A stretch of DNA of 64,000 nt from an uncultured Gammaproteobacteria bacterium (GTDB lineage Bacteria; Patescibacteriota; Microgenomatia; UBA10105; UBA927). The notes beneath the pieces were generated by a model that worked only from the letters and a program-made list of their open reading frames with translations, searched no databases and was not told the origin of the DNA. Shown in pieces: positions 23,873 through 40,895 of this stretch (its first letter is position 1; each line of letters opens with the position of its first letter). The DNA lies in the NCBI GenBank assembly GCA_964515005.1, contig CAZEVT010000003.1, positions 12,815-76,814 of the forward strand, read 5' to 3'. The translations under genes were made by a program, and so were the position numbers.

Positions 23873-23891
23873 TTAGAAGAAGGATATTTAT

Positions 23892-24716
23892 ATGATCACA
23901 AATTTAGTTATAGGTTCTGAGGGCGGAATCGGTACCTCGTTATGTAAATTCCTCGAAAAAAAGAATGAAAAGGTAGTACATTTTGATATTAAGAAAGATG
24001 AAAAAGAGGACGGGAGAGTTTTTAAATTCGATTTTAAAAATATAGATAATGTTTATTTTCTCGCTTGGGATGTCGGAGGTTCAAAATATTTATACGAGTC
24101 TAAAGTGCAAATGTCCCAGCTTAAGTGGAATTTGCAGTTAATGGCCAATATTTTTGAGCACATCGAAAAAGACAAGAAAAAATTTTTGTTTGTTTCCAGC
24201 CAGTTATCCGAAGAGTGCGATACGGTCTATGGCGTAACCAAAAGGCTAGGAGAAGTCTGGACGCATTTACTTAAAGGAGCGTGCGTCAGAGTGTGGAATG
24301 CCTACGGGGTAATGGAAGAGCAAAATATAAAAAGTCATGTTATCTCAGATTTTATTTCTCAGGCCCTATTAAGTGGAAAAATTAAAATGATGACAAATGG
24401 AGAAGAATGGCGTCAATTTACGCATATAGACGACGTCTGCAATGCATTTTACATGGCTTTACGTACCAATAATTTGCGTAGAACTGTGTACGATGCAAGT
24501 AGCTACGAATGGGTTCGCATAATTGATATCGCGCAAATAATTTGTGATTTAACCGGTGCAAAATACTATCCTGGAAGGACAAAAGGTCACGATCCACTGC
24601 CGTCACTCAATATGGGGAGATTACCCGGGTGGCTGCCTCGTGTTGCATTAAGGGACGGCATACAGAATATGATCTATCAAACACAGAAATCATTACAACA
24701 TGTTAAAAAGAAATGA
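23892..24716 (+). CDS. SDR-fold NAD(P)-dependent sugar epimerase/reductase (RmlD-like size)
   Basis: N-terminal glycine-rich GSEGGIGTSL and a YGVTK (YxxxK) catalytic motif, 274 aa. Confidence 0.5.
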   Translation: MITNLVIGSEGGIGTSLCKFLEKKNEKVVHFDIKKDEKEDGRVFKFDFKNIDNVYFLAWDVGGSKYLYESKVQMSQLKWNLQLMANIFEHIEKDKKKFLFVSSQLSEECDTVYGVTKRLGEVWTHLLKGACVRVWNAYGVMEEQNIKSHVISDFISQALLSGKIKMMTNGEEWRQFTHIDDVCNAFYMALRTNNLRRTVYDASSYEWVRIIDIAQIICDLTGAKYYPGRTKGHDPLPSLNMGRLPGWLPRVALRDGIQNMIYQTQKSLQHVKKK

Positions 24717-24718
24717 TA

Positions 24719-26681: not shown

Positions 26682-26690
26682 CTGACCAGT

Positions 26691-27554
26691 CTAGCTAATT
26701 CGCGAATGCTTGTCCAGGCGCCAGAAGCTGTTATAGACTGTCTTTTTAGTTAACTTTATACCACGATGAGCCAGATAGGGCAGAAGTCCCAGCGAATGCT
26801 GTGTCTTGACGTCCTCTACCAATAAAGTAGTATTTCTCGCTTTTTGAATGAGTCGCTTGCTTCCCTGTAACACTTTGATCTCGTGACCTTCAACGTCGAG
26901 TTTAATAAAGATGTCGGATTTATCGACGTGAGGAAAATGACTTACGTAATTATCAAGCATCTCGGTTTTGATAGTTATCTTTCGTGAGGTTGGAAAACTG
27001 ACGATCATTTTTTGCGGCGGATAGTAATAGAATTTTTGTGTGGCACTTTTATTACTTAATGCCTTCCGAAACAACGTGACGTTATGGAGTCTATTTATAC
27101 GAATATTTTCCTCTAATAATGAGAAGTTTTCCGGGTCGGGTTCAAATGCGTAGATTGCCATATTTTTTGAATCTTTTCGAAATCTATTTCCAATGGTTAC
27201 GGTATATTTTCCGAATTGAGCTCCTATGTCTATAAATATTACCCGACGATTTTGCACCAGCGAATCCGAAATTCGGCGAATAAGTTCTTCAATATCTAAC
27301 CGTTCAAATGCGGGAGAAGTTACTTTTACATCCCAACAAATATCTCTGATGCGAAAATCACCGAATTTTGTCTTAAGGAGCAATTTTTTGGTAAAGTCTG
27401 ATGCAAAGTTTTTCCGGTTAATCACTAAATAGAGGTAATAGAATTCGTTTATAAGAAAACGAAACCGCGGATTTCGACACTCAAGAGGTGACAGAAGATT
27501 ATAGAAGGCTAAAGAAAAATAAAATCTTAACTTTGAAAGACCGGAAAATTGCAT
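26691..27554 (-). CDS. FkbM-family methyltransferase
   Basis: FIDIGAQFGKYT...AFEPDPENF. Confidence 0.65.
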   Translation of the reverse strand: MQFSGLSKLRFYFSLAFYNLLSPLECRNPRFRFLINEFYYLYLVINRKNFASDFTKKLLLKTKFGDFRIRDICWDVKVTSPAFERLDIEELIRRISDSLVQNRRVIFIDIGAQFGKYTVTIGNRFRKDSKNMAIYAFEPDPENFSLLEENIRINRLHNVTLFRKALSNKSATQKFYYYPPQKMIVSFPTSRKITIKTEMLDNYVSHFPHVDKSDIFIKLDVEGHEIKVLQGSKRLIQKARNTTLLVEDVKTQHSLGLLPYLAHRGIKLTKKTVYNSFWRLDKHSRIS

Positions 27555-27632
27555 ACGGTACAGTATAGCTCCTTTTGATTAGCTTTGGAAGGTAATATGA
27601 TACAATTCCTAAGACTTATTTGAAAAGGACGT

Positions 27633-28751
27633 ATGCGTAATAGAAGTATTTACATCTTCATCGGTACGACCGCTGAACTTATCAAACTTGTCCCGGTAAT
27701 CAGGGAGCTTAAAAGACGAAAGATCGTCTTTACCGTCGTTGCATCCGGGCAAAATGATATATATTTTGAAGAATTTGCTGCGGAGTTAGGTAATGTGGAA
27801 ATATCATATGCTGTAACCCCGAAGGGAAAAGAGCCTTCCCTCGTGTTTTTTTTCTTTTGGGCGGTGAGAACCTTTTTTTCACTTATAATGGGAATGAAGG
27901 GACATTTTCAGGGATTAAATAAAACGAACTCATTTTTTATTGTACATGGCGATACAGTTTCATCTCTTATAGGATCACTCGTTGCATCTATGTATGGTCT
28001 TAAACTTGTGCACATCGAGTCAGGACTTAGATCTTTCAATTTTTTGGAGCCTTTTCCTGAAGAACTGTGTCGTTACATAATCTCACGGTTAGCCGATATT
28101 CATTTTTGCCCGAATGCGTGGGCAGTAGATAATCTCAACCTCGTTAAAGGTGTAAAGGTAAATACATATGAAAATACTCTCATAGAAACGTACTGGTCCG
28201 CGCTAAAAACAGCTAGCGACCATCCACTTGTTCACCAACTTCAGAAGCAAAAAACTCCATATTTTGTACTGGTTGTCCATAGACAAGAGCATGTTTTATT
28301 CGGACAAAAGCGAACTGCAGAAGAGCTTAAGTTTGTACTGAACACGGTGCCAAAAAATATGCGATGTATATTTCTCGTTCATGATTTATCTTCGAATTTC
28401 ATCCGGTCTTTGAGTCTGGTCCTATCTCAGAAAGTAGCTGCCAACATGATCCGCGTCGGGCGATTATCGTATCTGGACTTCATGCACTTATTGCGGGGAT
28501 CAGAATTTATGATTACTGATGGCGGCAGTAATCAAGAAGAAATGTACTATATGGGTAAACCGTGTTTACTCCTCCGAGGGACAACCGAACGCGTAGAAGG
28601 GTTAGGGAAAAATGTTATGTTAAGCAAAAACAAGAAGAAAACAATTATGCAATTTTTACGCAATTATAATACGTATAAAAGACGGTCAGTAAAGTTGGAC
28701 CTGCGCCCGTCGGATATAATAGTTGACTATTTATTTAATCATGGCTCATAA
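27633..28751 (+). CDS. UDP-N-acetylglucosamine 2-epimerase-like (WecB/NeuC family)
   Basis: HGDTVSSL...HIESGLRSFN..EPFPEE matches the Epimerase_2 signature. 372 aa. Confidence 0.7.
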   Translation: MRNRSIYIFIGTTAELIKLVPVIRELKRRKIVFTVVASGQNDIYFEEFAAELGNVEISYAVTPKGKEPSLVFFFFWAVRTFFSLIMGMKGHFQGLNKTNSFFIVHGDTVSSLIGSLVASMYGLKLVHIESGLRSFNFLEPFPEELCRYIISRLADIHFCPNAWAVDNLNLVKGVKVNTYENTLIETYWSALKTASDHPLVHQLQKQKTPYFVLVVHRQEHVLFGQKRTAEELKFVLNTVPKNMRCIFLVHDLSSNFIRSLSLVLSQKVAANMIRVGRLSYLDFMHLLRGSEFMITDGGSNQEEMYYMGKPCLLLRGTTERVEGLGKNVMLSKNKKKTIMQFLRNYNTYKRRSVKLDLRPSDIIVDYLFNHGS

Positions 28752-29790
28752 ATCAATTTTGAGTATCGTTATCGCAACGTTTAATTCAGAACGACTCCTT
28801 CCACGTGTGCTAGATTCCATTGCGAAACAAACGTATCCGAGTTCGAAAATAGAAATCCTCACTATTGACGGTGGTTCGACGGACGGGACAAGGGAAATTG
28901 CAAGGTCGTACGGCTGTAGAGTTATCGACAATCCGAAGACGCTCCCCGCATGGGCCAAATATATTGGATACACACATGCCCGCAGTGCGTACCTGATGTA
29001 TCTGGACAGTGATGAGATTATTGAAAGCACTCAGAGTATCAAGAGAAAAATTAATATCCTTCAGTCAAACCCATCGGTTCATGCCGTAACCGGAAGTGGG
29101 TATAAAAGCCCCAAGAGCTATTCTATTTTAAATGATTATATCAATGAATATGGAGACCCGTTTTCGTTTTTCATGTACCGCCTCTCAAAGAGCTATCGAT
29201 TTTTTGTGAGATCGATGAAGACTACATATTCGATCGTGGAGGAAAATAAGGATCATATTATTTTTGACTTTTCTCATTGTCGTGAGTTGCCAATTTTTGA
29301 ATTGGCAGCAATGGGGAGTATCGTAGATCTTCAATATTTGAGAACAAATTTTCCAAATATTTTGAAGAGTCCTGGCTTGATTTGGCATTTTTTCCATTTG
29401 CTTGTTTCCAAAGGCACATACATCGCAATAACCAAAAATGACGCACTCGTTCATTACTCTGTCAATTCGCTTCGTCACTATCTTCGCAAGATTACTTCTC
29501 GTGTGATAACAAATGTTTATACCCCTGCCAAAGAAGGATTTAAGGGGAGAGATGAATTAGCAGCTGGATACGGGTACATTAAACGATATTTATTCTTTCC
29601 CTACACGTTTTCAATCATATTACCTTTGATCGACAGCATATATTTATCGTTAACACGACACAATTTCGGTTACCTTGTGCATGTGCCCTTGTGTATCTAT
29701 ACCGCCAGTTTAATTATGTATTATTCGGTATTAAAGCTATTTGGTAGTCAACCGATTTTCAGATCGTACGGTGGGGCGCAACCTTTATGA
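28744..29790 (+). CDS. GT2 family glycosyltransferase with C-terminal TM helices
   Basis: LSIVIATFNSE...ILTIDGGSTDGT...YLDSDE. The likely start is ATG 28744. Confidence 0.8.
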   Translation, partial: AHKSILSIVIATFNSERLLPRVLDSIAKQTYPSSKIEILTIDGGSTDGTREIARSYGCRVIDNPKTLPAWAKYIGYTHARSAYLMYLDSDEIIESTQSIKRKINILQSNPSVHAVTGSGYKSPKSYSILNDYINEYGDPFSFFMYRLSKSYRFFVRSMKTTYSIVEENKDHIIFDFSHCRELPIFELAAMGSIVDLQYLRTNFPNILKSPGLIWHFFHLLVSKGTYIAITKNDALVHYSVNSLRHYLRKITSRVITNVYTPAKEGFKGRDELAAGYGYIKRYLFFPYTFSIILPLIDSIYLSLTRHNFGYLVHVPLCIYTASLIMYYSVLKLFGSQPIFRSYGGAQPL

Positions 29791-31700
29791 AATCTTACTT
29801 CACAAGAAATAAATTTTCTTTTCTTGCACTAATAGTTGCTATTATATTTTTTATCATTCCCTTTTTTTGGCTGAAGCCCGGATTTGTGGATCTGGGAGGG
29901 GACGCCGGGAGATTATATTTTCTTGATCCTCTCGCTGTTGCGCGGAATTTGTATTCGTATAGTAATTTAGCCTGGGCAACCTCTCACGCCATCATTCCTT
30001 ATGAATTATTTTTGGCTTTTTTGCATAGATTCATTACATCTCCGACAAACATGATTGTTTTGGAACATGGTGTGCAGCTGTCACTGGCGTTTCTTTTTAT
30101 GTTTCTCGTTATACGAGATATACTCTCACTATCGTCGCGACGGTCAGATGTACGTGTAGGATGGGTGAGCATTGCCGGTGGTCTTGTGTACGTTGGATTC
30201 GTTACGAGCATGGGCTGGGCTACATCGCTGCCGAGCCTCAATCAAGTATTTCTCAATCCGCTTCTTTTTTATCTGCTTTTGCGATATTGTCTGAACCGCT
30301 CGTTTTGGTATATGCCGACCATTCTTCTTCTCACTCTCTTATATTCCATAAACTTCGGGTTTTCATCGATGCCCCAGATTATGTCCTTCTATCCGTTGGT
30401 CATAGGGTTTCTTTTGATCGTACTTTCGCGTCTGTTTGGGCGGTCAATTCCATGGCGCGGCTTACTCACCCTGGGATTGCTTTTTGTAGGACTCCATTCT
30501 TTTCATATCATACCAACTATAGCATCCATAGTGGACACAAGTACGACGACGCATTCTTATGTTCTTAGTGATCAGTCGATACAGTATTCGGGTGTACATT
30601 ATTTCGCCGTTAACCATGAGGCACTTGGAAAAATTAGCACAGAATTGTTTGCGCCGTCCAAGGGGAGCCAGAATTTGCTCATTCTCTTGATTCCTATAAT
30701 TATTCTTCTGGGATTCATGGGACGCCCGTCAAAACTCCTAGCGGTAGTCGGGATATTTTTTGCAGTGACCTTTTTCCTCGTTTCCGCAAATATTACGAAG
30801 CTCGGAGTCGAATTGTATCAAAAACTGTTTTATATTCCCGGATTTATGATGTTTCGGTCGTTTAACGAAAAGTGGTATCCGGTTTTCGCGTTCTTCTACG
30901 TACTGCTTTTTGCATTTTCATTCTATTCGCTTGTCAAAAACAAAAAACCATGGATCGTTGTTGCGTTGTCCTTAATACTCATCGGGTCAACCATATATCG
31001 CATCATTCCTTTCTTACAGGGGAAAGCAATCGATGTTCCGCACTATCAATCTAAAAACGTGTCGACGGTATTTTCGATGGATCCGGACTTGATGGATACG
31101 GTTTCATTTGTACGCATACTGCCGGAAGGAAAAGTTTTGACCTTACCTCTCACTTTTCCATATTATCAGATTGCCTACGGTAAAGAGGGTGGAGCGTATG
31201 TGGGCGTCTCCATGATTATAAATTTGGCAGGCAGAGAGGATTTTACGGGATTTTGGCGTTTTGGTGAGTACGCACAGGGCATGTTTGACGCCATTCATGA
31301 CGAGGACGTGAACCGTATTCTACAGATTCTTTCCAGCCTTAAAGTGCGTTACGTTTTTTATAATTCAGACTCCCGCATCATGGATAATTTTCCAGATTAC
31401 CCGTATATATACCCGGGTCTCATGTACTCATCGAAAGATCAGTTGCCGGCCATTCGTGATCAGGCTGCATATAAATCGTTTTTGGCAAAATTACCGCTAA
31501 AAAAGATATATGAAAAAGGATTTTATTCACTGTACGAAATTGGCTATGCTCATCCGCCTGTATATACGTCGAATTTTGAGACACCAGCACGAGAAAATCA
31601 ATATTTTTTTATCGGACGCCTCCTCAGCGTAGCAACACTCGTTATATTCGGTTTGCTTATTTTTCGAGAGCTGGTTCGGAGGCGCAATGAAAAGAACTAA
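29787..31700 (+). CDS. Large polytopic membrane protein, unnamed GT-C-like family (paralog group with 33602 and 36581)
   Basis: 637 aa. N-terminal TM then the GGDAGRLYFLDP loop, about 12 TM helices, an internal YIPGFMMFRSF motif, a C-terminal soluble domain and a terminal TM anchor. Confidence 0.45.
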   Translation: MKSYFTRNKFSFLALIVAIIFFIIPFFWLKPGFVDLGGDAGRLYFLDPLAVARNLYSYSNLAWATSHAIIPYELFLAFLHRFITSPTNMIVLEHGVQLSLAFLFMFLVIRDILSLSSRRSDVRVGWVSIAGGLVYVGFVTSMGWATSLPSLNQVFLNPLLFYLLLRYCLNRSFWYMPTILLLTLLYSINFGFSSMPQIMSFYPLVIGFLLIVLSRLFGRSIPWRGLLTLGLLFVGLHSFHIIPTIASIVDTSTTTHSYVLSDQSIQYSGVHYFAVNHEALGKISTELFAPSKGSQNLLILLIPIIILLGFMGRPSKLLAVVGIFFAVTFFLVSANITKLGVELYQKLFYIPGFMMFRSFNEKWYPVFAFFYVLLFAFSFYSLVKNKKPWIVVALSLILIGSTIYRIIPFLQGKAIDVPHYQSKNVSTVFSMDPDLMDTVSFVRILPEGKVLTLPLTFPYYQIAYGKEGGAYVGVSMIINLAGREDFTGFWRFGEYAQGMFDAIHDEDVNRILQILSSLKVRYVFYNSDSRIMDNFPDYPYIYPGLMYSSKDQLPAIRDQAAYKSFLAKLPLKKIYEKGFYSLYEIGYAHPPVYTSNFETPARENQYFFIGRLLSVATLVIFGLLIFRELVRRRNEKN

Positions 31701-32019
31701 AGCACTAACAACCATTTCACTTTTTCTAATTCCGCTTATAATCGGTGTTGTGTTTGTGGACCTCTCGGGGACATTTTCGTATAGCGATCTTCCTTTTGCG
31801 ATAGCATTTTTGCTATATATTACGTTTGTATTCCTTCAGCGCGCAAAAAGCAGAACTGCCTTTATTATGAGTCTGTTTTTTCTTGCATGGATGGGGCTTT
31901 CGTACGTTCCGACCGGCGCGAGCGTATTGACGGAGCGGATAGGGGAATGGTTTTACTTGTTTTTCGTATTCGGACTTATACAGTACAATAAGGAAGTTTG
32001 GCATATTCCAACGCCATGA
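31687..32019 (+). CDS. Small integral membrane protein (3-4 TM)
   Basis: 110 aa, hydrophobic, translationally coupled to the flanking genes. Confidence 0.35.
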   Translation: MKRTKALTTISLFLIPLIIGVVFVDLSGTFSYSDLPFAIAFLLYITFVFLQRAKSRTAFIMSLFFLAWMGLSYVPTGASVLTERIGEWFYLFFVFGLIQYNKEVWHIPTP

Positions 32020-32687
32020 ATCGACAACAATCATTTTACGATAAGATTCCAGAATATGTTGAATTACAGGGCTATAACCCTGATAAAATCCGATTTATTC
32101 TCGATTCCGTTGACACAGGACTACGCATCTTGGATGTAGGATGCAACAACGGATTTATTGGGTCCATGCTTTTGAGAAAAAAGAATGACGTATACGGAAT
32201 TGACATAGCAGAACATAAAATACGCAGAGCGAAGAAGCGCGGGGTAAAAGCCATTGTAATTGATGTAGAAAATGAAAGCTTCCCGTTCAGATCAAATTAT
32301 TTTGACATTGTGCTGCTTACGGATGTTATAGAACATGTATTTGACACGGATTTGCTGTTACAAAAAATTTACAAGGTGCTTAAACCGGGAGGAACCCTCC
32401 TTATTACGACCCCCAATGTTGCATCGCTCGGCAGACGACTGATGCTTCTGTTCGGAATAAATCCGTTTTTGGAATATTCGACTCGCTACATCGACTATGT
32501 GCCTCGTCCGGTCGGCCATATAAGATATTACACGCATTCTGACCTTCGTCGTCAGCTGGAGCGCAATAATTACCGAAGCGTCATCACCAAAGGCGATCGT
32601 GTTAACTTTATTCTATTTTCGAATATATTTGCAGCGTTTTTGTTTCCGTCGTTGTCAGTCGATATACTTTGCCGAGCCACGAAATAA
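31998..32687 (+). CDS. Class I SAM-dependent methyltransferase
   Basis: ILDVGCNNGF motif I and the VLKPGGTLLITTPN motif. Confidence 0.75.
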   Translation: MAYSNAMNRQQSFYDKIPEYVELQGYNPDKIRFILDSVDTGLRILDVGCNNGFIGSMLLRKKNDVYGIDIAEHKIRRAKKRGVKAIVIDVENESFPFRSNYFDIVLLTDVIEHVFDTDLLLQKIYKVLKPGGTLLITTPNVASLGRRLMLLFGINPFLEYSTRYIDYVPRPVGHIRYYTHSDLRRQLERNNYRSVITKGDRVNFILFSNIFAAFLFPSLSVDILCRATK

Positions 32688-32691
32688 TTCT

Positions 32692-33612
32692 ATGCATTGT
32701 ATTGTTTGCGGTTACACCGCCTGGACATACGTATTTGCCGCACAAGATCGGATGTTCGGATTACCCGGGCAGTTCCGTGAGTACCGGTGCACTCACTGTG
32801 GATTGATGCGTTTATACCCGAAACCATCAAAGGAACAGTTAAAAAAATATTATCCATCCGCGTCGTACTACTCGTACAGGAAGACACGAAATTATAATTT
32901 TTTCAGGAGCCTGCGATCGTATCTCATATCTCATTTATACCGACCTTCCGTATGGTCTGTCATTATCGAGATATTTGTGACAGTTCCCGCGATGCCCCGC
33001 ATACGCCGCGGTCGCATACTTGATGTCGGATGCGGGAGTGGGGAGACCATGTCACTCCTTCAATCGGTAGGATGGGATGTGTATGGACTGGATATTGATA
33101 AGAACGCCATTGGCGTTGCGCGAACACAGGGGTTGCAGCATGCGTCCGTCGGTTCTCATGAAGATATAGGGAAATACCCGGATCATTTTTTCGATGTCAT
33201 ACGCATGTATCACGTTATTGAACATTTATCCGATCCTTTGCTCTGTCTTCGACTTGCACGTAGAAAGCTTAAGTCAGGCGGAGAGATAATTGTCGGTACA
33301 CCAAACGAAGCGAGCTTTGTTGCGAGAGTCGCCAGACAATATTGGTATAATTTGGATTGCCCGAGGCATCTCTATTTGTTCACCCCACAAACGCTCGGCC
33401 TGCTGTTGAAAAAAGCCAAGTTTACGAGTCTTCAGATGAATTTTTGTTCAGCTGGAGGGGTCGTGGGGAGCATGCAATACGTATGTAACGAAATATTCTC
33501 TAAAGATATTAATTTAATAAATCGATTGTGGGTCGTTTTATTGGTTTACCCGTTTGAGTGGTTCCTCGATCGATTGGAGCTTGGTGACGTCTTTGTGACA
33601 TATGCGAAGTAA
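32692..33612 (+). CDS. SAM-dependent methyltransferase with N-terminal zinc ribbon
   Basis: CIVCGY...CTHCG ribbon, then ILDVGCGSGE motif I. The likely start is ATG 32692. Confidence 0.7.
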   Translation: MHCIVCGYTAWTYVFAAQDRMFGLPGQFREYRCTHCGLMRLYPKPSKEQLKKYYPSASYYSYRKTRNYNFFRSLRSYLISHLYRPSVWSVIIEIFVTVPAMPRIRRGRILDVGCGSGETMSLLQSVGWDVYGLDIDKNAIGVARTQGLQHASVGSHEDIGKYPDHFFDVIRMYHVIEHLSDPLLCLRLARRKLKSGGEIIVGTPNEASFVARVARQYWYNLDCPRHLYLFTPQTLGLLLKKAKFTSLQMNFCSAGGVVGSMQYVCNEIFSKDINLINRLWVVLLVYPFEWFLDRLELGDVFVTYAK

Positions 33613-36571
33613 TATGTGGAAAAAATTCATCGCGTTTTTGTACCGTAACTTTGAATACGCTTTTGTCATCATTCTTGCATTCCCACCGCTCCTTTGGTTT
33701 CGCGACGGGTATGTACTCTTAGGTCACGATGCCGGGTTCCGACTCGATTATCTCTCTCAGCTTCCCAATGTATTCTATTCTTGGAATTCTACATATAACT
33801 TCGGAATTGACTGGAGCATGTTTAAGGGATTTCTCGTAACTCAATTTCCGGAAGTTACGTTTTCCGTTCTGACAGGTTCATTTGCCGTAGGAGAAAAACT
33901 GTCTCTCATTTTCTGGTTTGCGCTTATGGGCATAGGGATGTTGACCCTGCTTCGGAGTGTATTTCCGGCACCAACATACAGATTATTTAGATTATTTTCA
34001 AGCACCTTTTACATGTATAACTTTTTTATCCTGAGCGGTTGGACTATTGGCGAACGAGCGAAATTCTCCCTCTGGGCTGCGTTGCCGATTGGACTGCTTT
34101 TGATATACAACGTATTTGTCCGCAATCATTCCGTTATCCGAAACGGAATATGTTTCGGGTTGCTGTACTTTTTCCTTAACGGCGGAGGTGTTCTGCCGTT
34201 GTATGGCGGCACCGTCGTCGTTTTGGGTCTGGCATTTGTCTACTTCACGATACTGAGATTTAGAAAAGACGGATGGAGTGCGGTATGGTTTTGTAGCAAG
34301 GTGATATCGGCTTTTGTACTTCCGTTTGTCTTGTTGAACGCCTATTATATAGTTCCAAATGTTGGACTGCTAAAAACTAGCTACGGTTCTTCTGTTGCGG
34401 CTCAAGGGGGTATAGACGGACTTATCGCATGGGAGCGGGGTATTAGCCAAAATGCGTCGTTTTTTAACGTCATTCGGCTTCAGGGGTTACCTGATTGGTC
34501 GCCAGGCGCCGCGCAGCAGTATATCCATGCTTTTCTTACTAATCCATTTTTGATTATTTTCAGTTTTATTCCCATTGTTTCTATTATTCTGGGGTTTGCA
34601 TGGATACGGTTTGCCAACAGCACAAAAGAACAGCGGTTATTGGTAATATTCCTCATTCTCCTTCTCCCGTTTGGTCTGGTGTTAACAATGGGAACGCATC
34701 CACCGACCGGAATTCTGTACGAATTTGCCATGAAAAAGATTCCAGGGTTTGTGATGCTGCGTTCCAGTTTTTATAAGTTTGCGCCGGCTTTTTGGTTTCC
34801 TATGATTGTACTTTCCGGCTATTTTTTGAATCAACTTTTACTTCGAGTAAAGAAAAGCCCAAAGGTATATCAGATTATAGGCATATGCGCAATCATTGGT
34901 CTTTTGGCCTATCATTATCCGTTTTTTACCACAGACGCATTTACACTATCCGATAATTTTTCTACCCGCGTACGAATTCCGTCATATCTGGCTGACATTA
35001 CCACTCAAGTGAAGAGTCACGTGGAGGAAAGCAGCGCGATTCTTGTCGTGCCCAAAATGGAAATGTATTTTCCTGACTTACCGGTGGATACGTATACTTG
35101 GGGCTATTTCAGCCTGGATATTTTACCCCGTAATGCAATCAACAGACGGTTTATTGCGAATGATGGGCACAACCCGATAGTTCAAAGTCTTTATAACGCG
35201 CTCTATGCAGGCGATGCAGAAGCGACAACATACCTTGCGGGAGTTCTTCGCATCGATTACATTCTTTGGCGTGGGGACGCGAGACTGAGCGTGCAAACAC
35301 AGCTATATGATTCTCCTGATATAGCCAAGACTTTACTCGATACGAATCCGGATTTTAAGCGTATATTTGAAACCGAGTCATGGAGTTTATATAAAATTAT
35401 TCGGCAAGAAGTCGAGCAAAAAATATATGCTACCACATCGGTCGCCGCGTATCGGGGATCGGACGAGGCCGCCGGATTTCTCATACAGGATAAAGAGGTT
35501 CGTGATACGCTCACATTGGCAAAAATTCAGGATACCAGTCAACTTCAGAACATGCCGTATCAACGTCTGTTCTTTGAGGCAGAATGCAGTATGTGTGTGA
35601 AAAACGAATTTCAGAGTCTTGTCGACTCAATTGCTCTACCCAATAAACGTCTGACTCCGGCGTCTCCACTGTTTATGTTTGAAACATGGCGACAAAGCCA
35701 GCTTACGAAGCGCGTAGCTAACCTACCAAACGAACGCATAGACGCAGATCTCGCATTAGCGCAAAACTTTCTCTCTTATGTGAACGCGTTGAACAGACCA
35801 GAGTATTTTGTGCAGTACCTATCATACATGAATGATGCGATGGGTACCTGGGATGGATTCAAGGGGAGAGATAGGAATACGTATGCGATTCGATTACTCG
35901 CGTATATAGAGTCCCATGTGCATGCGCTCGCATCTCTCCAGGGGATGTCCGGTGCCGATGCTGTTTCTCAACGACTTGATGAAATGACGAAGAATTTGCA
36001 GAGGAACGTCTGGATGTCCGAAGGCAGTACATACAGATACATGATTTTGCTTGATGAAGAAGGCACGTATGAGTTGGAAATGAATACAAATCCGTCTGAC
36101 GTTGTGCACATATCACTAGATGGGGTAACACATCAATTAGGTTCACCTGCACGTTTGACATCCGGTTTGCATACAATAGAGGTATCCTTGGTTGACGAGC
36201 ATGTTTGGCGGCCGTATGTGTTTTTGAAAAAATCTATCCAACGCGATTTCGGTAGTCCTCCGCACATTACCTTTACAAAATTGAATCCGACCAAATATAT
36301 CGCGCATGTGAATAACAGTTCGGATCGCCAATTTTTGTTAGTGTTTAAGGAGCAGTATGATCCCCGGTGGACGACATCCATCACGGGTGCGACACACGTC
36401 ATGGTCGATGGATTTGCGAATGGGTGGATTATCAATACACCGGGAGTATACGATGTTGAAGTGTACTATATGCCGCAGGGTTATTTTTATATTGGTCTTG
36501 TTATTACTGGAGGCACGATACTTATTATCGGAATAGCGTATGGTATGTCTATAATGAAGCGTAGAAAATAG
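33602..36571 (+). CDS. Very large membrane protein, unnamed GT-C-like family, with ~600-aa extracytoplasmic C-terminal domain
   Basis: 989 aa. N-terminal GHDAGFRLDY loop, KIPGFVMLRSSF motif, multiple TM helices, a long soluble region and a C-terminal TM anchor (GGTILIIGIAYG). Confidence 0.45.
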   Translation: MRSNMWKKFIAFLYRNFEYAFVIILAFPPLLWFRDGYVLLGHDAGFRLDYLSQLPNVFYSWNSTYNFGIDWSMFKGFLVTQFPEVTFSVLTGSFAVGEKLSLIFWFALMGIGMLTLLRSVFPAPTYRLFRLFSSTFYMYNFFILSGWTIGERAKFSLWAALPIGLLLIYNVFVRNHSVIRNGICFGLLYFFLNGGGVLPLYGGTVVVLGLAFVYFTILRFRKDGWSAVWFCSKVISAFVLPFVLLNAYYIVPNVGLLKTSYGSSVAAQGGIDGLIAWERGISQNASFFNVIRLQGLPDWSPGAAQQYIHAFLTNPFLIIFSFIPIVSIILGFAWIRFANSTKEQRLLVIFLILLLPFGLVLTMGTHPPTGILYEFAMKKIPGFVMLRSSFYKFAPAFWFPMIVLSGYFLNQLLLRVKKSPKVYQIIGICAIIGLLAYHYPFFTTDAFTLSDNFSTRVRIPSYLADITTQVKSHVEESSAILVVPKMEMYFPDLPVDTYTWGYFSLDILPRNAINRRFIANDGHNPIVQSLYNALYAGDAEATTYLAGVLRIDYILWRGDARLSVQTQLYDSPDIAKTLLDTNPDFKRIFETESWSLYKIIRQEVEQKIYATTSVAAYRGSDEAAGFLIQDKEVRDTLTLAKIQDTSQLQNMPYQRLFFEAECSMCVKNEFQSLVDSIALPNKRLTPASPLFMFETWRQSQLTKRVANLPNERIDADLALAQNFLSYVNALNRPEYFVQYLSYMNDAMGTWDGFKGRDRNTYAIRLLAYIESHVHALASLQGMSGADAVSQRLDEMTKNLQRNVWMSEGSTYRYMILLDEEGTYELEMNTNPSDVVHISLDGVTHQLGSPARLTSGLHTIEVSLVDEHVWRPYVFLKKSIQRDFGSPPHITFTKLNPTKYIAHVNNSSDRQFLLVFKEQYDPRWTTSITGATHVMVDGFANGWIINTPGVYDVEVYYMPQGYFYIGLVITGGTILIIGIAYGMSIMKRRK

Positions 36572-36580
36572 TATAACAAT

Positions 36581-38092
36581 ATGTTTCTTTGGTATTTTGC
36601 TTCAGGCGATTTGGAGTTTTTTTGGAAAGAACAGTTGCAGGTTCTTTCATGGTTGCCTCAAGTGTTTCGTGAAGACATCGGATTTGGATTTAATATGCTT
36701 CTGAGCCTGTGGCTCGACTACCCGTTCCGAATTGTATTGAAGATACTATCCGGCATGGGTTTATCCTGGTTTATTATAGAAAAATTATTGTGGCTGTCGG
36801 TTTTATTACTCGCTGTCTATTCATCCTATCTATTGGCGTCACGTATATTGGGGAAAAACGTGTTTACGTATTTGGCGCCCGTCATCTATGCCACAAACAG
36901 TTACTTCTTGCTTCTTTTCAGCGGGGGACAGTTGGGGGTTGCGTTTGCGTACGCAATCGCACCGTTTGTTCTGATGAAATTTTTGCAAGGCAAGGCTATA
37001 GCAAATGGTCTGTGGCTCGCGCTTTTGGTTGTATTCGATCTTCGTATTGCATATTTGGTTGTTGGCGCAATTGTGTTATATCTGATACTTGAGAAGAAAT
37101 TTAGCTCGTTTTATTCTTTAGGAATTTCCCTCGCGGTTGCGGCGAGTGTACATCTGTATTGGATTTTACCCACAGTGTTGGCCAGTCGCGGAACTGCAGG
37201 TTTAGGAGAGCAATTTACCAACCCCGGCATGCTCAAGTTTTTGAGTTTTGCGGATTTCTCACATACGCTCGCGCTTCTCCATCCCAACTGGCCGGAGAAT
37301 TTGTTTGGAAAGGTGTATTTCTTGCAGCCGGAGTTTTTACTCTTGCCAATCATTGCATTTTCCGCGCTTTTATTTCGTGAACAAAAAATTCGTTTCTTTG
37401 CGCTACTGGCCCTAGTGGGAGCATTTTTTTCGAAAGGAGTTCAAGAACCCCTCGGGGGGATTTTCCAGTGGATGTTTACGTATATCCCTGGGTTTGTCAT
37501 GTTCCGAGATCCTACGAAATTCTATGTATTGACTGCAATCGGGTACTCTGTACTTATTCCGTTTGCTCTAAAACGAATGAACAAAATGATACTCTATATA
37601 TGTTTTATTCTTTTTTGGATTTTTACCGTGCGAGCTATCAATGTACGGCCGGTCCAACTTCCGCAGGAATATGTGCAGTTAAAAAATCTTCTTGTTTCGG
37701 ATGCCGTGCCGTCGCGGACGTTATGGATTCCGCAAAAAGAAAACTTCGCTTATTTTTCGGACATTCACCCGATTTTGATATCAACAGCAACTGCATCCAT
37801 AGATTCGAGCGTAAAATATGTTATTGTACCGACCGACGTGAATAAACGCATTTTTTTGAATGATTACAAATTTGATCTGTCAGTTCGAACAAAGCTGATT
37901 GATGAGCTAGGATTAACTTTAAACAGAAATCCGTCCTTTCGTGATCTTGCTGTATTTGAAAATCCAGATTTTACACAGATGCAGAGCACGGTGCCAGCGA
38001 TTGCAGTCAAGCAGCAACGATTGGCAAACGTGGGGCTCTTAGCCAGCATTGTTTCACTCGTTGGCTGGATAATCGCACGAAAAGTATTATGA
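36581..38092 (+). CDS. Polytopic membrane protein, same unnamed family (short form)
   Basis: 503 aa with SGDLEFFW near the N-terminus and a YIPGFVMFRDP motif. Lacks the long C-terminal domain. Confidence 0.4.
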   Translation: MFLWYFASGDLEFFWKEQLQVLSWLPQVFREDIGFGFNMLLSLWLDYPFRIVLKILSGMGLSWFIIEKLLWLSVLLLAVYSSYLLASRILGKNVFTYLAPVIYATNSYFLLLFSGGQLGVAFAYAIAPFVLMKFLQGKAIANGLWLALLVVFDLRIAYLVVGAIVLYLILEKKFSSFYSLGISLAVAASVHLYWILPTVLASRGTAGLGEQFTNPGMLKFLSFADFSHTLALLHPNWPENLFGKVYFLQPEFLLLPIIAFSALLFREQKIRFFALLALVGAFFSKGVQEPLGGIFQWMFTYIPGFVMFRDPTKFYVLTAIGYSVLIPFALKRMNKMILYICFILFWIFTVRAINVRPVQLPQEYVQLKNLLVSDAVPSRTLWIPQKENFAYFSDIHPILISTATASIDSSVKYVIVPTDVNKRIFLNDYKFDLSVRTKLIDELGLTLNRNPSFRDLAVFENPDFTQMQSTVPAIAVKQQRLANVGLLASIVSLVGWIIARKVL

Positions 38093-39936
38093 TACTTATT
38101 CTTATTTTTTATTTATTCTCAACGTTTTTCCTGGGCTGGACCATAGTCAAAAAGTGGTTTGGAGGCTTGCCGACACTTCTGTCAATTGTGGGCGCTTTTT
38201 TGCTGGGAACGGGGATAGGAGTACCGATTACCTATTTCCTGGCAGTTCTTTTTTCTAAAACTAGTGCGCCGATATTGTGGGGTACGATCACGGCTAGTGC
38301 AGCGGCAATTGTCATCAGATATCAGTTATCTCATCCAAAGGCTGATCGTCCTCTGGACGATGTTATCAACAAGAATAATAAAATATCTTTGAGCGAAATA
38401 GCTCTTATCGTATTCTCCATGGTTTTCAGCACGTGGCTTATGACCAAGACGTTTCACGGGAATACGGCAGGAGAGCTATTTGTGGGAAGTAATAATATTT
38501 TTGATTTTGGATTTATGGTTGGGCTCGTCCGGTCGATATCGTGGGGGTCAAATATTCCGATACAGGAACCGTTTTTTGCAGGGTTCCCGCTTTTTTACCA
38601 TTTTTTCTTCGCCTTTTGGGTCGCTCTATGGGAATATTTTGGCGTTCCCATAGTCTGGGCGATGAATATCCCGAGCATACTTTCGTTTACTGCGATGCTT
38701 GTCGTTATATATTATTTGCCTCAAATTATCGCAAAGCAAAAACCCCTGGTTGGATGGATTGCGGTTCTTTTGACCATCACCAATAGTTCACTCACATTTT
38801 GGAAGATTGTAGGCAAACAGGATATCTGGCATCTGTCGACCTATCCATTTGCCGGACCGTTTGACGGATCTACGATTTCCATTTTTGTGACGCTCAATAG
38901 CTACGTGAACCAGCGTCATTTGGCGTTTGCTATCGCATATACGTTGTTTTTATTTCTTGTCTTTATCGTCTGGTTACAGCAAAAGAAAATTTCTCTATCC
39001 CATTCAGTAAAGCTCGGTGTGCTTACTGGTGTTTTATTTTTGTGGAATACCGTGGTGTTTCTTTTGGCCGTCGGAATATTCGGGTTCGTATTTGTTATGC
39101 AAAAGCGATGGAAGTCGGTGATTGTCTTTGGGATGACTGCAGCAACTGTCGCAATTATCGTCTTAGCGCCACAGGCAACGTTGCTATACAAAGTCTTACC
39201 ATTCTTGGGTTATCTGACAGAATCGCAGCGAAGTCTTTTCATACCCACGTGGAATATAGCGGAATACCTTTGGGAAAATTTGAGCATTCTCCCTGTCGTT
39301 GCTGTGTTGGGTTATATTGCTCTGACGAAAAAGACAAGACAATTTCTGCTGCCCTTTATTATTTTCTTTGTGGGCGCATGCATGCTTGCGACGGTCGGAA
39401 AGCGCGGATTTGATCAAAAGCTTCTATCATTTTTTATCATCGGTATCAATGTACTCGCCGCGGTTGGGCTGATGTGGTTGTGGGAGAGGCGCACCGTATT
39501 TTTTCGGGCATGTGCGATTGGTTTGTGCGTTATGCTGACCGTTTCGGGAGTCATAGATCTCTTTCCGATAAAAAACGAATTCGCATACCCTTTAATCGGG
39601 AAAGACAGCCTTCCGCTTATTTCGTGGATTCGGACGAATACAAACAAAAATTCAGTTTTTGTCTCGTATGAGGATATGATTGACCCGGTCGTGCTTGGAG
39701 GCAGAACGAATTACTATGGATTTTTCAAGAATGTCGGTCAATATGACCGTTCTGCGGATGTCAGACGTATATATGCAGGAGATGTTTCTTACGCAAAGAC
39801 GATCGGCATATCCTATATCCTCGTGCCGAAATGGCAGAAAAACGATTTTCCGTATGTGGCTGATACAGAGAATTTACGGAAACGCGTGGGAGTTGCATAC
39901 GAAGACAGCCGCTTCACCGTGTTTGCTATTGAGTAA
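38089..39936 (+). CDS. Polytopic membrane protein with C-terminal soluble domain (possible GT-C glycosyltransferase)
   Basis: 615 aa, about 13 TM helices, conserved loop residues. No assignable family. Confidence 0.35.
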   Translation: MILILIFYLFSTFFLGWTIVKKWFGGLPTLLSIVGAFLLGTGIGVPITYFLAVLFSKTSAPILWGTITASAAAIVIRYQLSHPKADRPLDDVINKNNKISLSEIALIVFSMVFSTWLMTKTFHGNTAGELFVGSNNIFDFGFMVGLVRSISWGSNIPIQEPFFAGFPLFYHFFFAFWVALWEYFGVPIVWAMNIPSILSFTAMLVVIYYLPQIIAKQKPLVGWIAVLLTITNSSLTFWKIVGKQDIWHLSTYPFAGPFDGSTISIFVTLNSYVNQRHLAFAIAYTLFLFLVFIVWLQQKKISLSHSVKLGVLTGVLFLWNTVVFLLAVGIFGFVFVMQKRWKSVIVFGMTAATVAIIVLAPQATLLYKVLPFLGYLTESQRSLFIPTWNIAEYLWENLSILPVVAVLGYIALTKKTRQFLLPFIIFFVGACMLATVGKRGFDQKLLSFFIIGINVLAAVGLMWLWERRTVFFRACAIGLCVMLTVSGVIDLFPIKNEFAYPLIGKDSLPLISWIRTNTNKNSVFVSYEDMIDPVVLGGRTNYYGFFKNVGQYDRSADVRRIYAGDVSYAKTIGISYILVPKWQKNDFPYVADTENLRKRVGVAYEDSRFTVFAIE

Positions 39937-39953
39937 TTTGATAGAATAAGATT

Positions 39954-40895
39954 ATGGACACCAAAACCGCAGTTGTGACCGGTGGAGCAGGATTTATAGG
40001 ATCACACCTTGTTGATGCTCTTCTTTTGGCAGGTCACAAGGTTATTTGTGTCGATAATCTACTGACCGGGTCAGAAGCCAATCTCCAGAAAGCGAAAAAA
40101 AATCCCAATTTTTCATTCATAAACCACGATATTATTGAGTCTCCTCCTGACGTTCCAGACGGCGTTGACTTTGTATTTCATCTGGCGTCTCCGGCCTCGC
40201 CCGTGGATTTTAAGAAACTTGCCGAAGAAATAGCACTCGTGAACTCCGTGGGATCCATCAATATGCTGAAGTTTGCCAAAGAGAAAGGCGCACGATACTT
40301 AGAAGCCTCGACGTCAGAGGTGTACGGAGACCCTAAGGAGCACCCGCAGAAGGAAACCTATTGGGGTAATGTCAACCCCAACGGTATCAGGTCCTGCTAT
40401 GATGAGTCAAAACGTTTTGCCGAGGCCATGACCATGCTATACCTCCGAAAATATGGGTTGGATGCCCGAATTGTACGGATTTTCAACACCTACGGACCGA
40501 GAATGAGGAAGGATGACGGTCGGGTGGTATCCAATTTCATCAATCAGGCCATTTCAGGAACTCCGCTGACGATCTATGGCGACGGGACGCAAACGCGTTC
40601 TTTTTGTTTTGTTTCGGATCTTGTTGACGGGCTCATGAAGGCGATGATGAGCGATCACACCAAAGGCGTCGTATTTAACTTGGGCAACCCAGAGGAGTAT
40701 CAGGTAAAAGAACTGGCAGAAAAGATAAAGACACTTACTGCTTCTTCTTCGCCCATTGAACACGGAGAACTTCCGGAAGATGACCCCACGCAGAGGAAGC
40801 CCGATATAACGAAAGCAAAAACGATACTCGGTTGGGAGCCAAAAGTTACGGTCGACCAGGGACTCAAGATGACGATTGAGTATTACAAAAAATGA
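39954..40895 (+). CDS. uxs: UDP-glucuronate decarboxylase (UDP-xylose synthase-type SDR)
   Basis: VTGGAGFIGSHL, YDESKR, and the RVVSNFI.QA..G.PLTIYGDGTQTRSF block typical of UXS/ArnA-decarboxylase enzymes. Confidence 0.9.
   Translation: MDTKTAVVTGGAGFIGSHLVDALLLAGHKVICVDNLLTGSEANLQKAKKNPNFSFINHDIIESPPDVPDGVDFVFHLASPASPVDFKKLAEEIALVNSVGSINMLKFAKEKGARYLEASTSEVYGDPKEHPQKETYWGNVNPNGIRSCYDESKRFAEAMTMLYLRKYGLDARIVRIFNTYGPRMRKDDGRVVSNFINQAISGTPLTIYGDGTQTRSFCFVSDLVDGLMKAMMSDHTKGVVFNLGNPEEYQVKELAEKIKTLTASSSPIEHGELPEDDPTQRKPDITKAKTILGWEPKVTVDQGLKMTIEYYKK

Follow-up and report, generated by a model that had tools for sequence, protein, structure and literature searches.

A glycan gene cluster of a Microgenomates-group member of the Patescibacteria (CPR) encodes three large polytopic membrane proteins, here called A, B and C, and raises the question of what these proteins do. 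All family members that we found are annotated "hypothetical protein". The cluster occupies ~57 kb (position 30 to about 57,600) of the window, the stretch of 64,000 nucleotides analysed here. It codes for an initiating phosphoglycosyl transferase, a Wzx-like flippase, many GT2 and GT4 enzymes, methyltransferases and, with A, B, C and other types included, at least nine GT-C-type proteins. Its sugar-nucleotide set comprises SDR epimerases/dehydratases, GalE, a ManC-like nucleotidyltransferase, a UDP-GlcNAc 2-epimerase and aminotransferases. We find A, B and C to be real, conserved genes, whose coordinates and lengths (Table 1) are exactly those given in an earlier note on this DNA. Databases start B 4 codons downstream (985 aa).

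Table 1 Genes at and around A, B and C, with positions in the window
Feature	Position	Strand	Length (aa)	Description
GT2 glycosyltransferase	28723-29790	+	355	C-terminal segment hydrophobic; 5' of A
Protein A	29787-31700	+	637	AftD-like GT-C
Two class I SAM methyltransferase genes	31998-32687, 32599-33612	+		Between A and B
Protein B	33602-36571	+	989	Most AftD-like of the three
Protein C	36581-38092	+	503	Short AftD/MmpA-like GT-C
Protein D	38089-39936	+	615	More remote GT-C-type membrane protein directly 3' of C
SDR	39954-40895	+		Generic 4,6-dehydratase/decarboxylase-like; directly 3' of D
GalE	41094-42071	+		Sugar-nucleotide SDR; above NCBIfam cut-off

The GT2 gene and A are translationally coupled, with the ATG of A overlapping the GT2 stop codon (ATGA, 29787-29790), and a further ATGA overlap couples C to D. 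B and C are separated by a 10-nt gap in the window and overlap in relatives; this pair is kept in 44 of 65 Microgenomates loci. Two methyltransferase genes also precede B in a close relative (L001), a single one lies 5' of B in another locus (L003), and both of these loci retain the order SDR, small ORF, SDR 3' of D.

Kinship, motifs and topology of A, B and C

Judged by sequence, A, B and C are genuine paralogues, though distant ones, that diverged anciently. Pairwise BLASTP comparisons gave E values of 6e-6, 3e-5 and 1e-3. Alignment of family profiles with hhalign joined B to A (100%, E 6.6e-42, over 557 columns that take in the GxD loop), C to the B subgroup (99.8%, E 2.3e-27) and A to C (97.4%, E 1.1e-11), with the PGF motifs in register. 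This similarity lies far above chance and bears out the shared sequence that had been reported, including its two sets of motif strings: an N-terminal loop (GGDAGRLYFLDP at A 37-48, GHDAGFRLDY at B 41-50, SGDLEFFW at C 8-15) and an internal motif (YIPGFMMFRSF at A 349-359, KIPGFVMLRSSF at B 379-390, YIPGFVMFRDP at C 301-311). The pattern PGFxx[FLMIV]R was present in 107 of 109 homologues of A, 117 of 120 of B and 118 of 120 of C (342 of 349 in total), and the loop Asp never varies in the alignments of A and B and is kept in at least 90% of the C sequences. Motif conservation extends to hundreds of proteins from other genomes. A six-frame translation of the window yielded the PGF pattern five times: three are A, B and C, and the other two are chance matches, one at 12080 in a different frame from the real ORF at that place and one at 2803 on the minus strand.

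The PGF motif had been assigned to the cytoplasmic face of the membrane. By contrast, we place it on the periplasmic face, the same side as the soluble domain, because after it come two TM helices with a short K/R-rich loop between them, then the large soluble domain, and because the C-terminal tails beyond the last TM helix are K/R-rich. The soluble domains also differ from the 0, ~290 and ~600 aa proposed earlier, at about 121 aa in C, 194 aa in A and 516 aa in B, and all three proteins, rather than two, end in a single TM anchor.

A consists of TM1, a periplasmic loop with the invariant G38-D39, PGFMMFR (351-357), two further TM helices, a periplasmic alpha/beta domain (411-604) and the anchor (605-631). 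Most of its family are 740-815 aa long and have an extra beta-sandwich bearing NGYANxW; A, a short form, lacks this sandwich. In B, TM1 and a loop with invariant G41, D43 and G45 precede PGFVMLR (381-387), and R387 and K392 are invariant. The periplasmic region of B (444-959) contains an alpha/beta domain in which W500 is invariant and G501 near-invariant, a conserved CxxC (C662/C665), a helical bundle at about 691-802 (DUF5667 in relatives) and a beta-sandwich at about 810-956, ahead of the anchor (960-985). This beta-sandwich is carbohydrate-binding-like: Foldseek matched it to the CBM-containing glucanotransferase 3WNO (probability 0.98), single relatives match CBM_4_9, and it aligns to the C-terminal beta-sandwich region of AftD.

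C lacks TM1 and begins directly at the G9-D10 loop, departing from what is, to our knowledge, a feature of every characterised GT-C. The loss is common to its clade, and distant C-type genes keep the loop Asp with or without TM1. The rest of C comprises a flexible loop (226-248), PGFVMFRD (303-310), the periplasmic domain (359-479) and the anchor (480-502), and D225, N236, E251, D310 and K313 are invariant polar residues of its periplasmic loops. D is a conserved downstream partner that is homologous to B in its last TM helices and periplasmic domain; an N-terminal loop of D carries an invariant D139, and the PGFxxFR motif is absent.

Relationship to AftD

Profile searches place A, B and C in an AftD-centred GT-C superfamily, and the Pfam family PF11847 (GT-C_AftD, formerly DUF3367) covers the group. 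PF11847 was matched by 15 of 41 relatives of B and 8 of 40 relatives of C. Of nine proteins scored individually, four lay clearly above the gathering cut-off of 26 bits (P0346, 51.3; P0327, 45.3; P0341, 43.9; P0229, 34.5); these are relatives of B and C, and the B relatives aligned to about positions 10-544 of the 661 in the profile. The A, B and C of the window had no Pfam match, and none of them reaches a Pfam or NCBIfam threshold alone; the A family never matched PF11847 directly and is linked to it only through B. Family profiles matched the AftD PDB chains 6W98 and 6WBX (E 0.04 and 0.007), either ahead of any other GT-C or as the sole GT-C, and the alignment covers the part of the loop that follows the Asp as well as the W-G that opens the periplasmic domain.

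Comparison of AlphaFold models of B (pLDDT 90.2, pTM 0.84) and C (pLDDT 82, pTM 0.81) led to the same family. AftD took the top three Foldseek places for B (E 2.5e-13 to 3.3e-11, TM 0.51-0.55 over the query), with STT3, AglB and Pmt4 next, and the top three for C (E 1.7e-5, TM 0.59), followed by STT3, PglB and DPY19. In structure both models thus came closest to AftD 6W98, and AftD was the only GT-C family recovered by sequence. Profiles and fold back the likeness to arabinofuranosyl and mannosyl transferases with variable extracytoplasmic domains that had been suggested, and neither model has a transporter fold. As large polytopic proteins of the membrane that are encoded in a glycan locus, A, B and C could be transporters or flippases for lipid-linked sugars rather than transferases, and genetics ties proteins of the MmpA family to lipid export. 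However, we find this hardly credible: no transporter was among the significant structural matches of B or C (the best had E of at least 0.016, probability of at most 0.25 and TM below 0.1), and a Wzx-type flippase is already encoded in the locus.

The second tier of structural matches, STT3, AglB, PglB, DPY19 and Pmt4, raises the question of whether A, B and C are instead oligosaccharyltransferases or protein O-/N-glycosyltransferases (STT3/PglB/AglB- or PMT-like) that move lipid-carried glycans onto proteins of the cell surface (S-layer or pilin subunits, for example) instead of extending a polysaccharide. STT3, AglB and PglB share a GT-C_A-type fold with A, B and C, and the initiating phosphoglycosyl transferase and flippase of the locus have counterparts in protein-glycosylation loci. 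Furthermore, the W-G pair that opens the periplasmic domain of B lies at what we take to be the position of the WWDxG region of oligosaccharyltransferases. The WWDxG motif itself, however, is absent from all three proteins, AftD outscores STT3 and AglB by 6-7 orders of magnitude for B and by about 2-3 for C, and Pfam scans matched PF11847 repeatedly and no STT3 or PglB family. The acceptor presumably differs as well, and the beta-sandwich of B suits a glycan acceptor. We consider protein glycosylation very unlikely.

AftD (the Rv0236c family; 6W98, 6WBX, 6WBY) resembles A, B and C in its N-terminal polytopic GT-C module, whose first periplasmic loop carries a conserved Asp, a long, flexible and conserved loop ahead of the third-last TM region, a conserved Arg-containing loop between the equivalents of TM9 and TM10, and a periplasmic alpha/beta "soluble GT-C" domain that opens with a conserved W-G. 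In B, the terminal beta-sandwich and the TM helix that re-enters the membrane correspond to the structural beta-sandwich and TM12 of AftD. By contrast, identity is about 10-11%, AftD has about 1,400 aa compared to 503-989 aa, and B carries a DUF5667-type helical insertion. The window proteins lack CBM1-3 and the four-helix bundle of TM13-16, and therefore have no acyl carrier protein binding site.

In AftD, D41, which lies in the same loop as the conserved Asp, is essential; so are two residues of EL5, K361 and the fully conserved R357 (10.1101/2019.12.22.885152). Only the EL1 Asp among the five experimentally essential AftD residues could be matched with reasonable confidence: K39 is replaced by Gly in the A, B and C families, D474/E475 stand opposite non-acidic residues of the AftD-nearest subgroup in one alignment, and AftD E251 could not be aligned to these families. 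We equate the PGF loop with EL5 by topology only, since a profile focused on the PGF region failed to align to AftD. AftD homologues have been described only across Actinobacteria (10.1101/2019.12.22.885152), whereas the host here belongs to the Patescibacteria, and our literature search found nothing on a Patescibacteria branch of the AftD family. The suggestion of an undescribed GT-C clade holds for this branch but not for the family, which is already named in PF11847. We conclude that the three proteins represent a divergent and uncharacterised branch, within the Patescibacteria, of an already known GT-C family.

C also resembles its closest named relative, MmpA (NCgl2761/Rv0226c; NF053599), a short paralogue of the AftD N-terminal module that is required for trehalose-lipid export and has been proposed to be the membrane anchor of a complex, thought to be non-catalytic (PMC8698533). 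MmpA is close to C in size (474-540 aa) and has one small extracytoplasmic domain before its final TM helix. It differs in retaining the N-terminal helix, in being confined to Corynebacterineae and in its tie to mycolate-trehalose lipid export, a process that we know of in no CPR bacterium. These parallels would fit a mixed assembly in which B, and perhaps A, is an enzyme and C a non-catalytic partner that acts as scaffold or regulator of a complex with B and D, or moves a lipid-linked intermediate. Consistent with this idea, MmpA is the only NCBIfam match of C (E 1.2e-10), its layout is the same, TM1 is missing from C, and C lies nearly always directly 3' of a B-type gene. However, the match scores 40.7 bits, far under the family cut-off of 210, and covers only residues 253-391. 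Moreover, C keeps the loop Asp, the PGFVMFRD motif and the invariant polar residues, an active-site-like rather than a scaffold pattern, and the same Asp occurs in distant C-type genes that retain TM1. A non-catalytic C thus appears rather unlikely.

A candidate role in surface-glycan assembly

Our preferred reading is that A, B and C are probably AftD-type GT-C paralogues of an envelope-glycan locus that most likely add sugars to a surface glycan on the outside of the cell membrane. Nucleotide sugars would come from cytoplasmic enzymes encoded in the locus. The GT2 enzyme encoded 5' of A, a candidate polyprenyl-phosphate sugar synthase and source of the lipid-linked donor, would load sugar on polyprenyl phosphate, and the product would be flipped to the outer face, where each GT-C would pass it to the growing glycan. 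Catalysis would proceed via the conserved Asp of the first periplasmic loop. The PGFxxFR loop, at the position of the AftD loop that bears R357 and K361, may close over an active-site cavity that lies between the membrane domain and the periplasmic alpha/beta domain.

In its logic, the locus is similar to three-component extracytoplasmic glycosylation systems, namely the GtrA/GtrB/Gtr* and GT136 pentofuranose systems (PMC11127046), which share a GT2 enzyme as possible maker of polyprenyl-phosphate sugar, a flippase, and GT-C enzymes that act outside the membrane and have optional carbohydrate-binding beta-sandwich domains. No sequence kinship to Gtr* or GT136 was detected for A, B or C, and those systems have one GT-C compared to at least nine GT-C-type genes here. 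Pfam scans of the window returned no GtrA, MATE, UbiA-type synthase or DprE homologues; a UbiA/DprE-type arabinose donor pathway was not found in the window, nor were decaprenyl-phospho-arabinose pathway genes near A, B and C.

The periplasmic additions differ among the three proteins: C has none beyond the core, A the core only, and B a helical bundle and a beta-sandwich. Such differences would set different acceptor or linkage specificities. Finally, the tight, conserved B-C(-D) order suggests that B, C and possibly D act consecutively or as a complex.

Relatedness and topology of the three proteins

The three plus-strand open reading frames, here called A, B and C, lie exactly where an earlier note on this DNA had placed them (table), and all the peptide strings it quoted are found in the encoded proteins. 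A, B and C share ~22% identity in a three-way alignment, and each pair is significantly similar by BLASTP (A/B, E = 6e-6 over ~240 residues; A/C, 3e-5; B/C, 1e-3), the matches being concentrated in the IPGF block and the stretch that follows it in the proteins. We gathered homologues of A (109), B (142, of which 120 were listed) and C (575, of which 120 were listed) and built one family alignment for each (A1 for A, A2 for C, A3 for B). Profile-profile comparison with hhalign joined B to A with a probability of 100% (E = 6.6e-42) over 557 columns starting at residue 1, setting GHDSG on GGDsG. A was similarly joined to C (97.4%, E = 1.1e-11, 539 columns). C and the profile of a subgroup of B were aligned over 476 columns (99.8%, E = 2.3e-27), and their PGF blocks fell in register. 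Judged by these profile-profile comparisons, the common ancestry of the three proteins is beyond doubt.

The motif that the earlier note had singled out is kept outside its own genome: PGFxx[FLMIV]R occurs in 107 of the 109 A homologues and in 117 and 118 of the 120 listed homologues of B and C, respectively. In the family alignments P, (G), F, F and R of the PGFxxFR motif are invariant, as are two aspartates in the first extracytoplasmic loop (EL1), D39 of A and D43 of B; the corresponding D10 of C is at least 90% conserved. Six-frame translation of the window yielded the PGF pattern five times, in A, B and C and in two chance matches. One of the latter, at 12080, overlaps the ORF of a Wzx-like flippase and is read in a different frame from it.

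Hydropathy, the distribution of lysine and arginine, and the secondary structure of the B and C models gave concordant topologies. A and B begin with a K/R-rich cytoplasmic N-terminus and TM1, followed by the G-x-D loop, which is therefore extracytoplasmic. In all three proteins the PGFxxFR motif is followed by a TM helix, a very short K/R-rich loop ('KNKKP' in A, 'RVKKSPK' in B, 'KRMNK' in C), a further TM helix, a large soluble domain and a final TM helix; A and B close with a basic cytoplasmic tail ('RRRNEKN' and 'KRRK') and the C terminus of C is 'ARKVL'. Because of this order of elements, the PGF motif shares a side with the soluble domain, on the periplasmic face and not on the cytoplasmic face to which the earlier note had assigned it. 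The soluble domains, put there at 0, ~290 and ~600 aa, measure ~194 aa in A (411-604), 516 aa in B (444-959) and 121 aa in C (359-479), and the TM anchor seen at the end of two proteins is present at the end of all three. A is a short form, without the terminal beta-sandwich (NGYANxW motif) carried by most members of its family. The periplasmic region of the B family contains an invariant CxxC (C662/C665) that could be a disulfide or a metal site. Long members of the A family have a CxxxxC at the corresponding position.

Features of the window and of the glycan locus, in window positions
Feature	Position	Strand	Remarks
A	29787-31700	+	637 aa
B	33602-36571	+	989 aa
CxxC of B (C662/C665)	35585-35596	+	
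C	36581-38092	+	503 aa
D	38089-39936	+	615 aa, directly downstream of C
PMT_2-type membrane protein	30-1391		
PMT_2-type membrane protein	6757-8232		
PMT_2-type membrane protein	48101-49687		
PTPS_related/YfhO-type membrane protein	2905-4497		
PTPS_related/YfhO-type membrane protein	8229-9803		
Wzx-like flippase	11533-12792		
ManC-like nucleotidyltransferase	53868-54950		
Bac_transf initiating phosphoglycosyl transferase	54958-55596		
DUF4012 protein	55635-57638		
GT2 enzymes			at least 8
GT4 enzymes			several
GalE, other SDRs, WecB-like epimerase, DegT aminotransferase, hexapeptide acyltransferase			
SAM methyltransferases			at least 7
Polytopic ORF	45246-48242	+	998 aa
Glyco_transf_4 N-domain ORF, then full GT4	42209-43845	+	N-domain free-standing, 177 aa
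Split GT4	51730-52775	+	176-aa N-half, then 172-aa C-half
Hydrophobic ORF overlapping the end of A	31687-32019	+	110 aa, no family match
Region of lower G+C	20000-40000		0.37-0.44, against 0.46-0.53 across most flanks

Placement by sequence profiles and predicted fold

A, B and C had no Pfam match even at E <= 1, and none reached the 26-bit gathering threshold of PF11847 (GT-C_AftD, formerly DUF3367), the family of the mycobacterial arabinofuranosyltransferase AftD. A phmmer search of the three against the PDB returned nothing usable, and the sole NCBIfam match among them was that of C to MmpA (NF053599; E = 1.2e-10, residues 253-391), which at 40.7 bits lies below the cut-off of 210 bits. These single-sequence scans were unhelpful for A, B and C and profiles were therefore needed. 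Among family members scanned singly, PF11847 matched 15 of 41 in the B family and 8 of 40 in the C family at E <= 0.1, and five relatives exceeded the gathering score (P0346, 51.3 bits; P0327, 45.3; P0341, 43.9; P0229, 34.5; P0296, 28.5). The match of P0346 spans positions 23-544 of the 661 in the profile, and the matches of several relatives span nearly the whole GT-C module. On this sequence evidence, the PF11847 membership of A, B and C is transitive, at the level of the superfamily, and not direct. Since none of the 42 A-family members scanned matched PF11847, A is tied to AftD only via B; the A-family profile likewise had no match in the PDB.

The other profiles led to AftD. That of C had its best matches among PDB sequences in the AftD chains 6W98/6WBX (E = 0.04, profile 26-218 on AftD 58-244). 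The profile of the B subgroup nearest to AftD (A4) matched AftD chains at E = 0.007 in two stretches: one just after the conserved GHD ('lpLnPl...vWt...glG' on 'LAINPL...LWS...PFG'), and one at the start of the periplasmic domain, where an invariant W-G falls on 'TWG...DEP' of AftD. The full B profile set its C-terminal beta-sandwich and anchor (853-981) on AftD 1150-1270 (E = 0.26). In AftD this region follows CBM3 (10.1101/2019.12.22.885152), and its position is thus that of the structural beta-sandwich leading to TM12.

Models were built by AlphaFold2 with the family alignments (C, pLDDT 82.0 and pTM 0.81; B, pLDDT 90.2 and pTM 0.84) and compared with the PDB by Foldseek. For C, ranks 1-3 were the three AftD entries (E = 1.7e-5 to 9.6e-5; query-normalised TM 0.55-0.59), followed by yeast and human STT3, PglB and DPY19. 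For B, ranks 1-3 were again AftD (E = 2.5e-13 to 3.3e-11, TM 0.51-0.55), followed by STT3, AglB and Pmt4, and the terminal beta-sandwich weakly matched CBM-bearing glucanotransferases (3WNO, probability 0.98). All significant structural matches of the two models were thus to GT-C enzymes (AftD, STT3, AglB, PglB, Pmt4 and DPY19). Transporters, whose fold would have spoken against the GT-C reading, appeared only at non-significant scores with TM < 0.1. Taking a GT-C fold to be a polytopic N-terminal membrane module of 7-13 TM helices in the GT-C arrangement together with an extracytoplasmic domain, the models predict this fold for B and C, and we infer it for A through its 100% hhalign match to B. 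The earlier note's GT-C guess was accordingly a good one, as the B and C models and the family profiles lead to AftD-type GT-C: A, B and C are GT-C glycosyltransferase-type proteins, and AftD is their nearest known relative. Its suggestion of a candidate undescribed GT-C clade stands in that the proteins form a deep, uncharacterised CPR branch, and falls in that their relatives lie inside Pfam GT-C_AftD.

Comparison with the active site and domains of AftD

The acidic residue in the first extracytoplasmic loop that serves as a GT-C criterion is present in all three proteins, with D39 and D43 following TM1 and D10 in the homologous loop. AftD has D41 in the same loop, and the distance from the aspartate to the aligned [WF]...G-x-G segment is 16-19 residues in AftD, B and C. 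It is plausible from these alignments that the EL1 aspartate of A, B and C is the equivalent of D41. In Mycobacterium abscessus AftD, the K39A, D41A, E251A, K361A and D474A variants all fail complementation (10.1101/2019.12.22.885152). The AftD loop EL5 (residues 331-363, between TM9 and TM10) contains an absolutely conserved R357 and conserved P340/P355, can fold over the active site and is, according to its authors, unique to AftD (10.1101/2019.12.22.885152). In A, B and C this position is occupied by the PGFxxFR(x4-5)K block, whose loop immediately precedes the final pair of TM helices in the GT-C module. A focused 12-sequence profile of the PGF region (A7) gave only spurious matches to leukotriene C4 synthase, and the equivalence with EL5 is topological only. 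The stretch 226-248 of C, which is disordered in the model (pLDDT < 50) and rich in invariant residues (D225, P235-N236-W237-P238, N240 and E251), is reminiscent of the flexible, conserved EL4 of AftD.

Other features differ from AftD. The position of K39 is a glycine in the A, B and C families, D474/E475 fall on non-acidic residues (S-L/a-P) in the subgroup nearest to AftD, and no counterpart of E251 or K361 could be aligned in the three families. At the level of the predicted fold and the first-loop aspartate, an AftD-like mode of working appears well supported; the catalytic constellation may differ from that of AftD in detail. Furthermore, AftD is ~1,380 aa long and has three CBMs and, at its C terminus, the TM13-16 bundle to which acyl carrier protein binds, whereas A and C have neither CBMs nor this bundle. 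B carries a single beta-sandwich and a single TM anchor, with a helical bundle in place of the ACP-binding bundle and CBMs, and DUF5667 was matched in 13 of 41 of its relatives scanned. A, B and C are thus reduced versions of AftD that define the minimal core of the AftD type, and the EL1 aspartate and the PGFxxFR loop at the EL5 position are candidate universal catalytic features of the AftD-type branch.

C also departs from AftD in its N-terminus. The G-D lies inside the first 15 residues in 109 of the 120 listed C homologues, which have the conserved N-terminus 'MxWYFASGD'; some family members carry a GDAGF variant of the loop. Distant C-type genes downstream of B-type genes (at loci L016, L039, L042, L054, L066 and L080 of other genomes) still have a TM helix at the N terminus, with '[GHN]-D-W-P-[FYL]' after it, whereas the clade of C in the window starts straight at the loop; the loss of TM1 is therefore derived. 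The EL1 aspartate is present in both forms. We know of no described GT-C enzyme without TM1.

Gene order, distribution and the surrounding glycan locus

The order of these genes recurs in other genomes. A close relative (L001/L002) has GT2...A-MT-MT-B-C-D-...-SDR-SDR, and the distant Microgenomates genome GCA_049287205.1 (L003) has MT-B-C-D-SDR-small ORF-SDR. HMMs of the A, B, C and D families, run over 80 loci from GTDB species genomes, found a C-type gene 3' of the B-type gene in 44 of the 65 loci with enough flank and a D-type gene 3' of C in 10 of 27. Tandem B-B pairs in six genomes (L037, L043, L048, L052, L054 and L061) point to an ongoing paralogue expansion of the large AftD-like gene. 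In the window, ATGA overlaps join GT2 to A and C to D. B and C share a reading frame, with 9 nt between the TAG stop of B and the start of C, an arrangement that could suggest a single fused or read-through gene. We rejected this reading in favour of two separate genes: the stop is TAG, which is not a known recoded codon in CPR, and B and C of relatives overlap out of frame.

D had no BLAST similarity to B, no match in single-sequence hhalign and no Pfam match. It has 910 relatives in the representative library. Its family profile matched that of B (probability 96.1%, E = 3.4e-9) across the periplasmic alpha/beta domain and the final TM helices, and three of its relatives weakly matched Dpy19. 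A loop aspartate, D139, is invariant and, with it, an 'NQRH' block is (near-)invariant. The homology of D to B lies in the C-terminal third, and as PGFxxFR is absent we do not count D as a member of the A-B-C family. The description that fits D best is that of a fourth GT-C-type protein, more remote than A, B and C, and its family is probably another undescribed GT-C family. We think it unlikely that B, C and D make up an obligate hetero-oligomeric, Microgenomates-specific GT-C machine, in which the TM1-less C would need to dock to a partner, such as B or the C-terminal anchor helix of B, to reach its active conformation, and which would polymerise or branch a heavily methylated CPR lipoglycan or wall polysaccharide in functional parallel to mycobacterial arabinan/LAM assembly. 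If it did exist, such a machine would be the first defined envelope polymer pathway of this uncultured group and the first split or TM1-less GT-C.

All informatively named homologues of A, B and C belong to Patescibacteria, overwhelmingly to the Microgenomates group (Gottesman-, Woese-, Levy-, Roizman-, Davies-, Shapiro-, Ames- and Dojkabacteria), and every member of the three families is annotated 'hypothetical protein'. Homologues of AftD have been reported from Actinobacteria only (10.1101/2019.12.22.885152), and our literature search on Patescibacteria with GT-C, DUF3367 or CPR envelope glycosyltransferases found nothing relevant. In the deep CPR branch formed by A, B and C the architecture is reduced, the periplasmic PGFxxFR loop is distinctive and conserved, one paralogue has lost TM1, and B-C(-D) recurs as a conserved module. 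AftD-type enzymes, so far an actinobacterial speciality tied to arabinogalactan and lipoarabinomannan, thus have a multi-paralogue branch across Microgenomates Patescibacteria, which are ultra-small and uncultured. The locus offers concrete targets for heterologous expression and for identifying the surface glycan that its bearers display to hosts or partners; the advance is one of annotation within a known enzyme class and adds no new mechanism. Among the GTDB representative MAGs with B-type genes (L005-L083), many are TPA co-assemblies bearing the title 'uncultured Gammaproteobacteria bacterium', probably a placeholder, and one bears the title 'archaeon'. Their B-C pairs resemble those of named Microgenomates, so these titles are probably unreliable.

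Positions 30 to ~57,600 are essentially one envelope-glycan locus, nearly all on the plus strand (table), in which GT-C-type genes, at least nine in number, are unusually dense. Among its sugar-nucleotide enzymes NCBIfam named only GalE and the WecB-like epimerase, the latter below its own cut-off; the other SDRs were generic. Genes for a decaprenyl-phospho-arabinose donor (UbiA-type synthase, DprE1/E2) were not found by Pfam among the 44 window ORFs scanned. Candidate GT2 synthases and the flippase provide a context for a possible polyprenyl-phosphate-linked donor. As for the product, one might reasonably guess at a methylated heteropolysaccharide or lipoglycan, though this is no more than a guess. 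The 998-aa polytopic ORF has no Pfam or NCBIfam match and, with an hhalign probability of 4.5%, is not a fourth AftD-like member. By eye, its N-terminal half seems to carry an O-antigen-ligase/Wzy-like signature (FLGSGYSTLSLAADGDYMRMLGETGLLG), fused to a second polytopic half.

Two GT4 loci contain divided genes (table). A 178-182-aa Glyco_transf_4 gene is called in L001 and L003 too, so the split looks genuine and not a sequencing frameshift. The 110-aa ORF that overlaps the end of A might encode a small flippase-like or accessory membrane protein, or be no gene at all; in L001 the interval from A to the methyltransferase genes has no corresponding gene call. Both L001 and L003 have small ORFs (65-73 aa) called between their two SDR genes. 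Finally, the drop in G+C across the region that includes A-D is typical of exchangeable surface-polysaccharide gene blocks.
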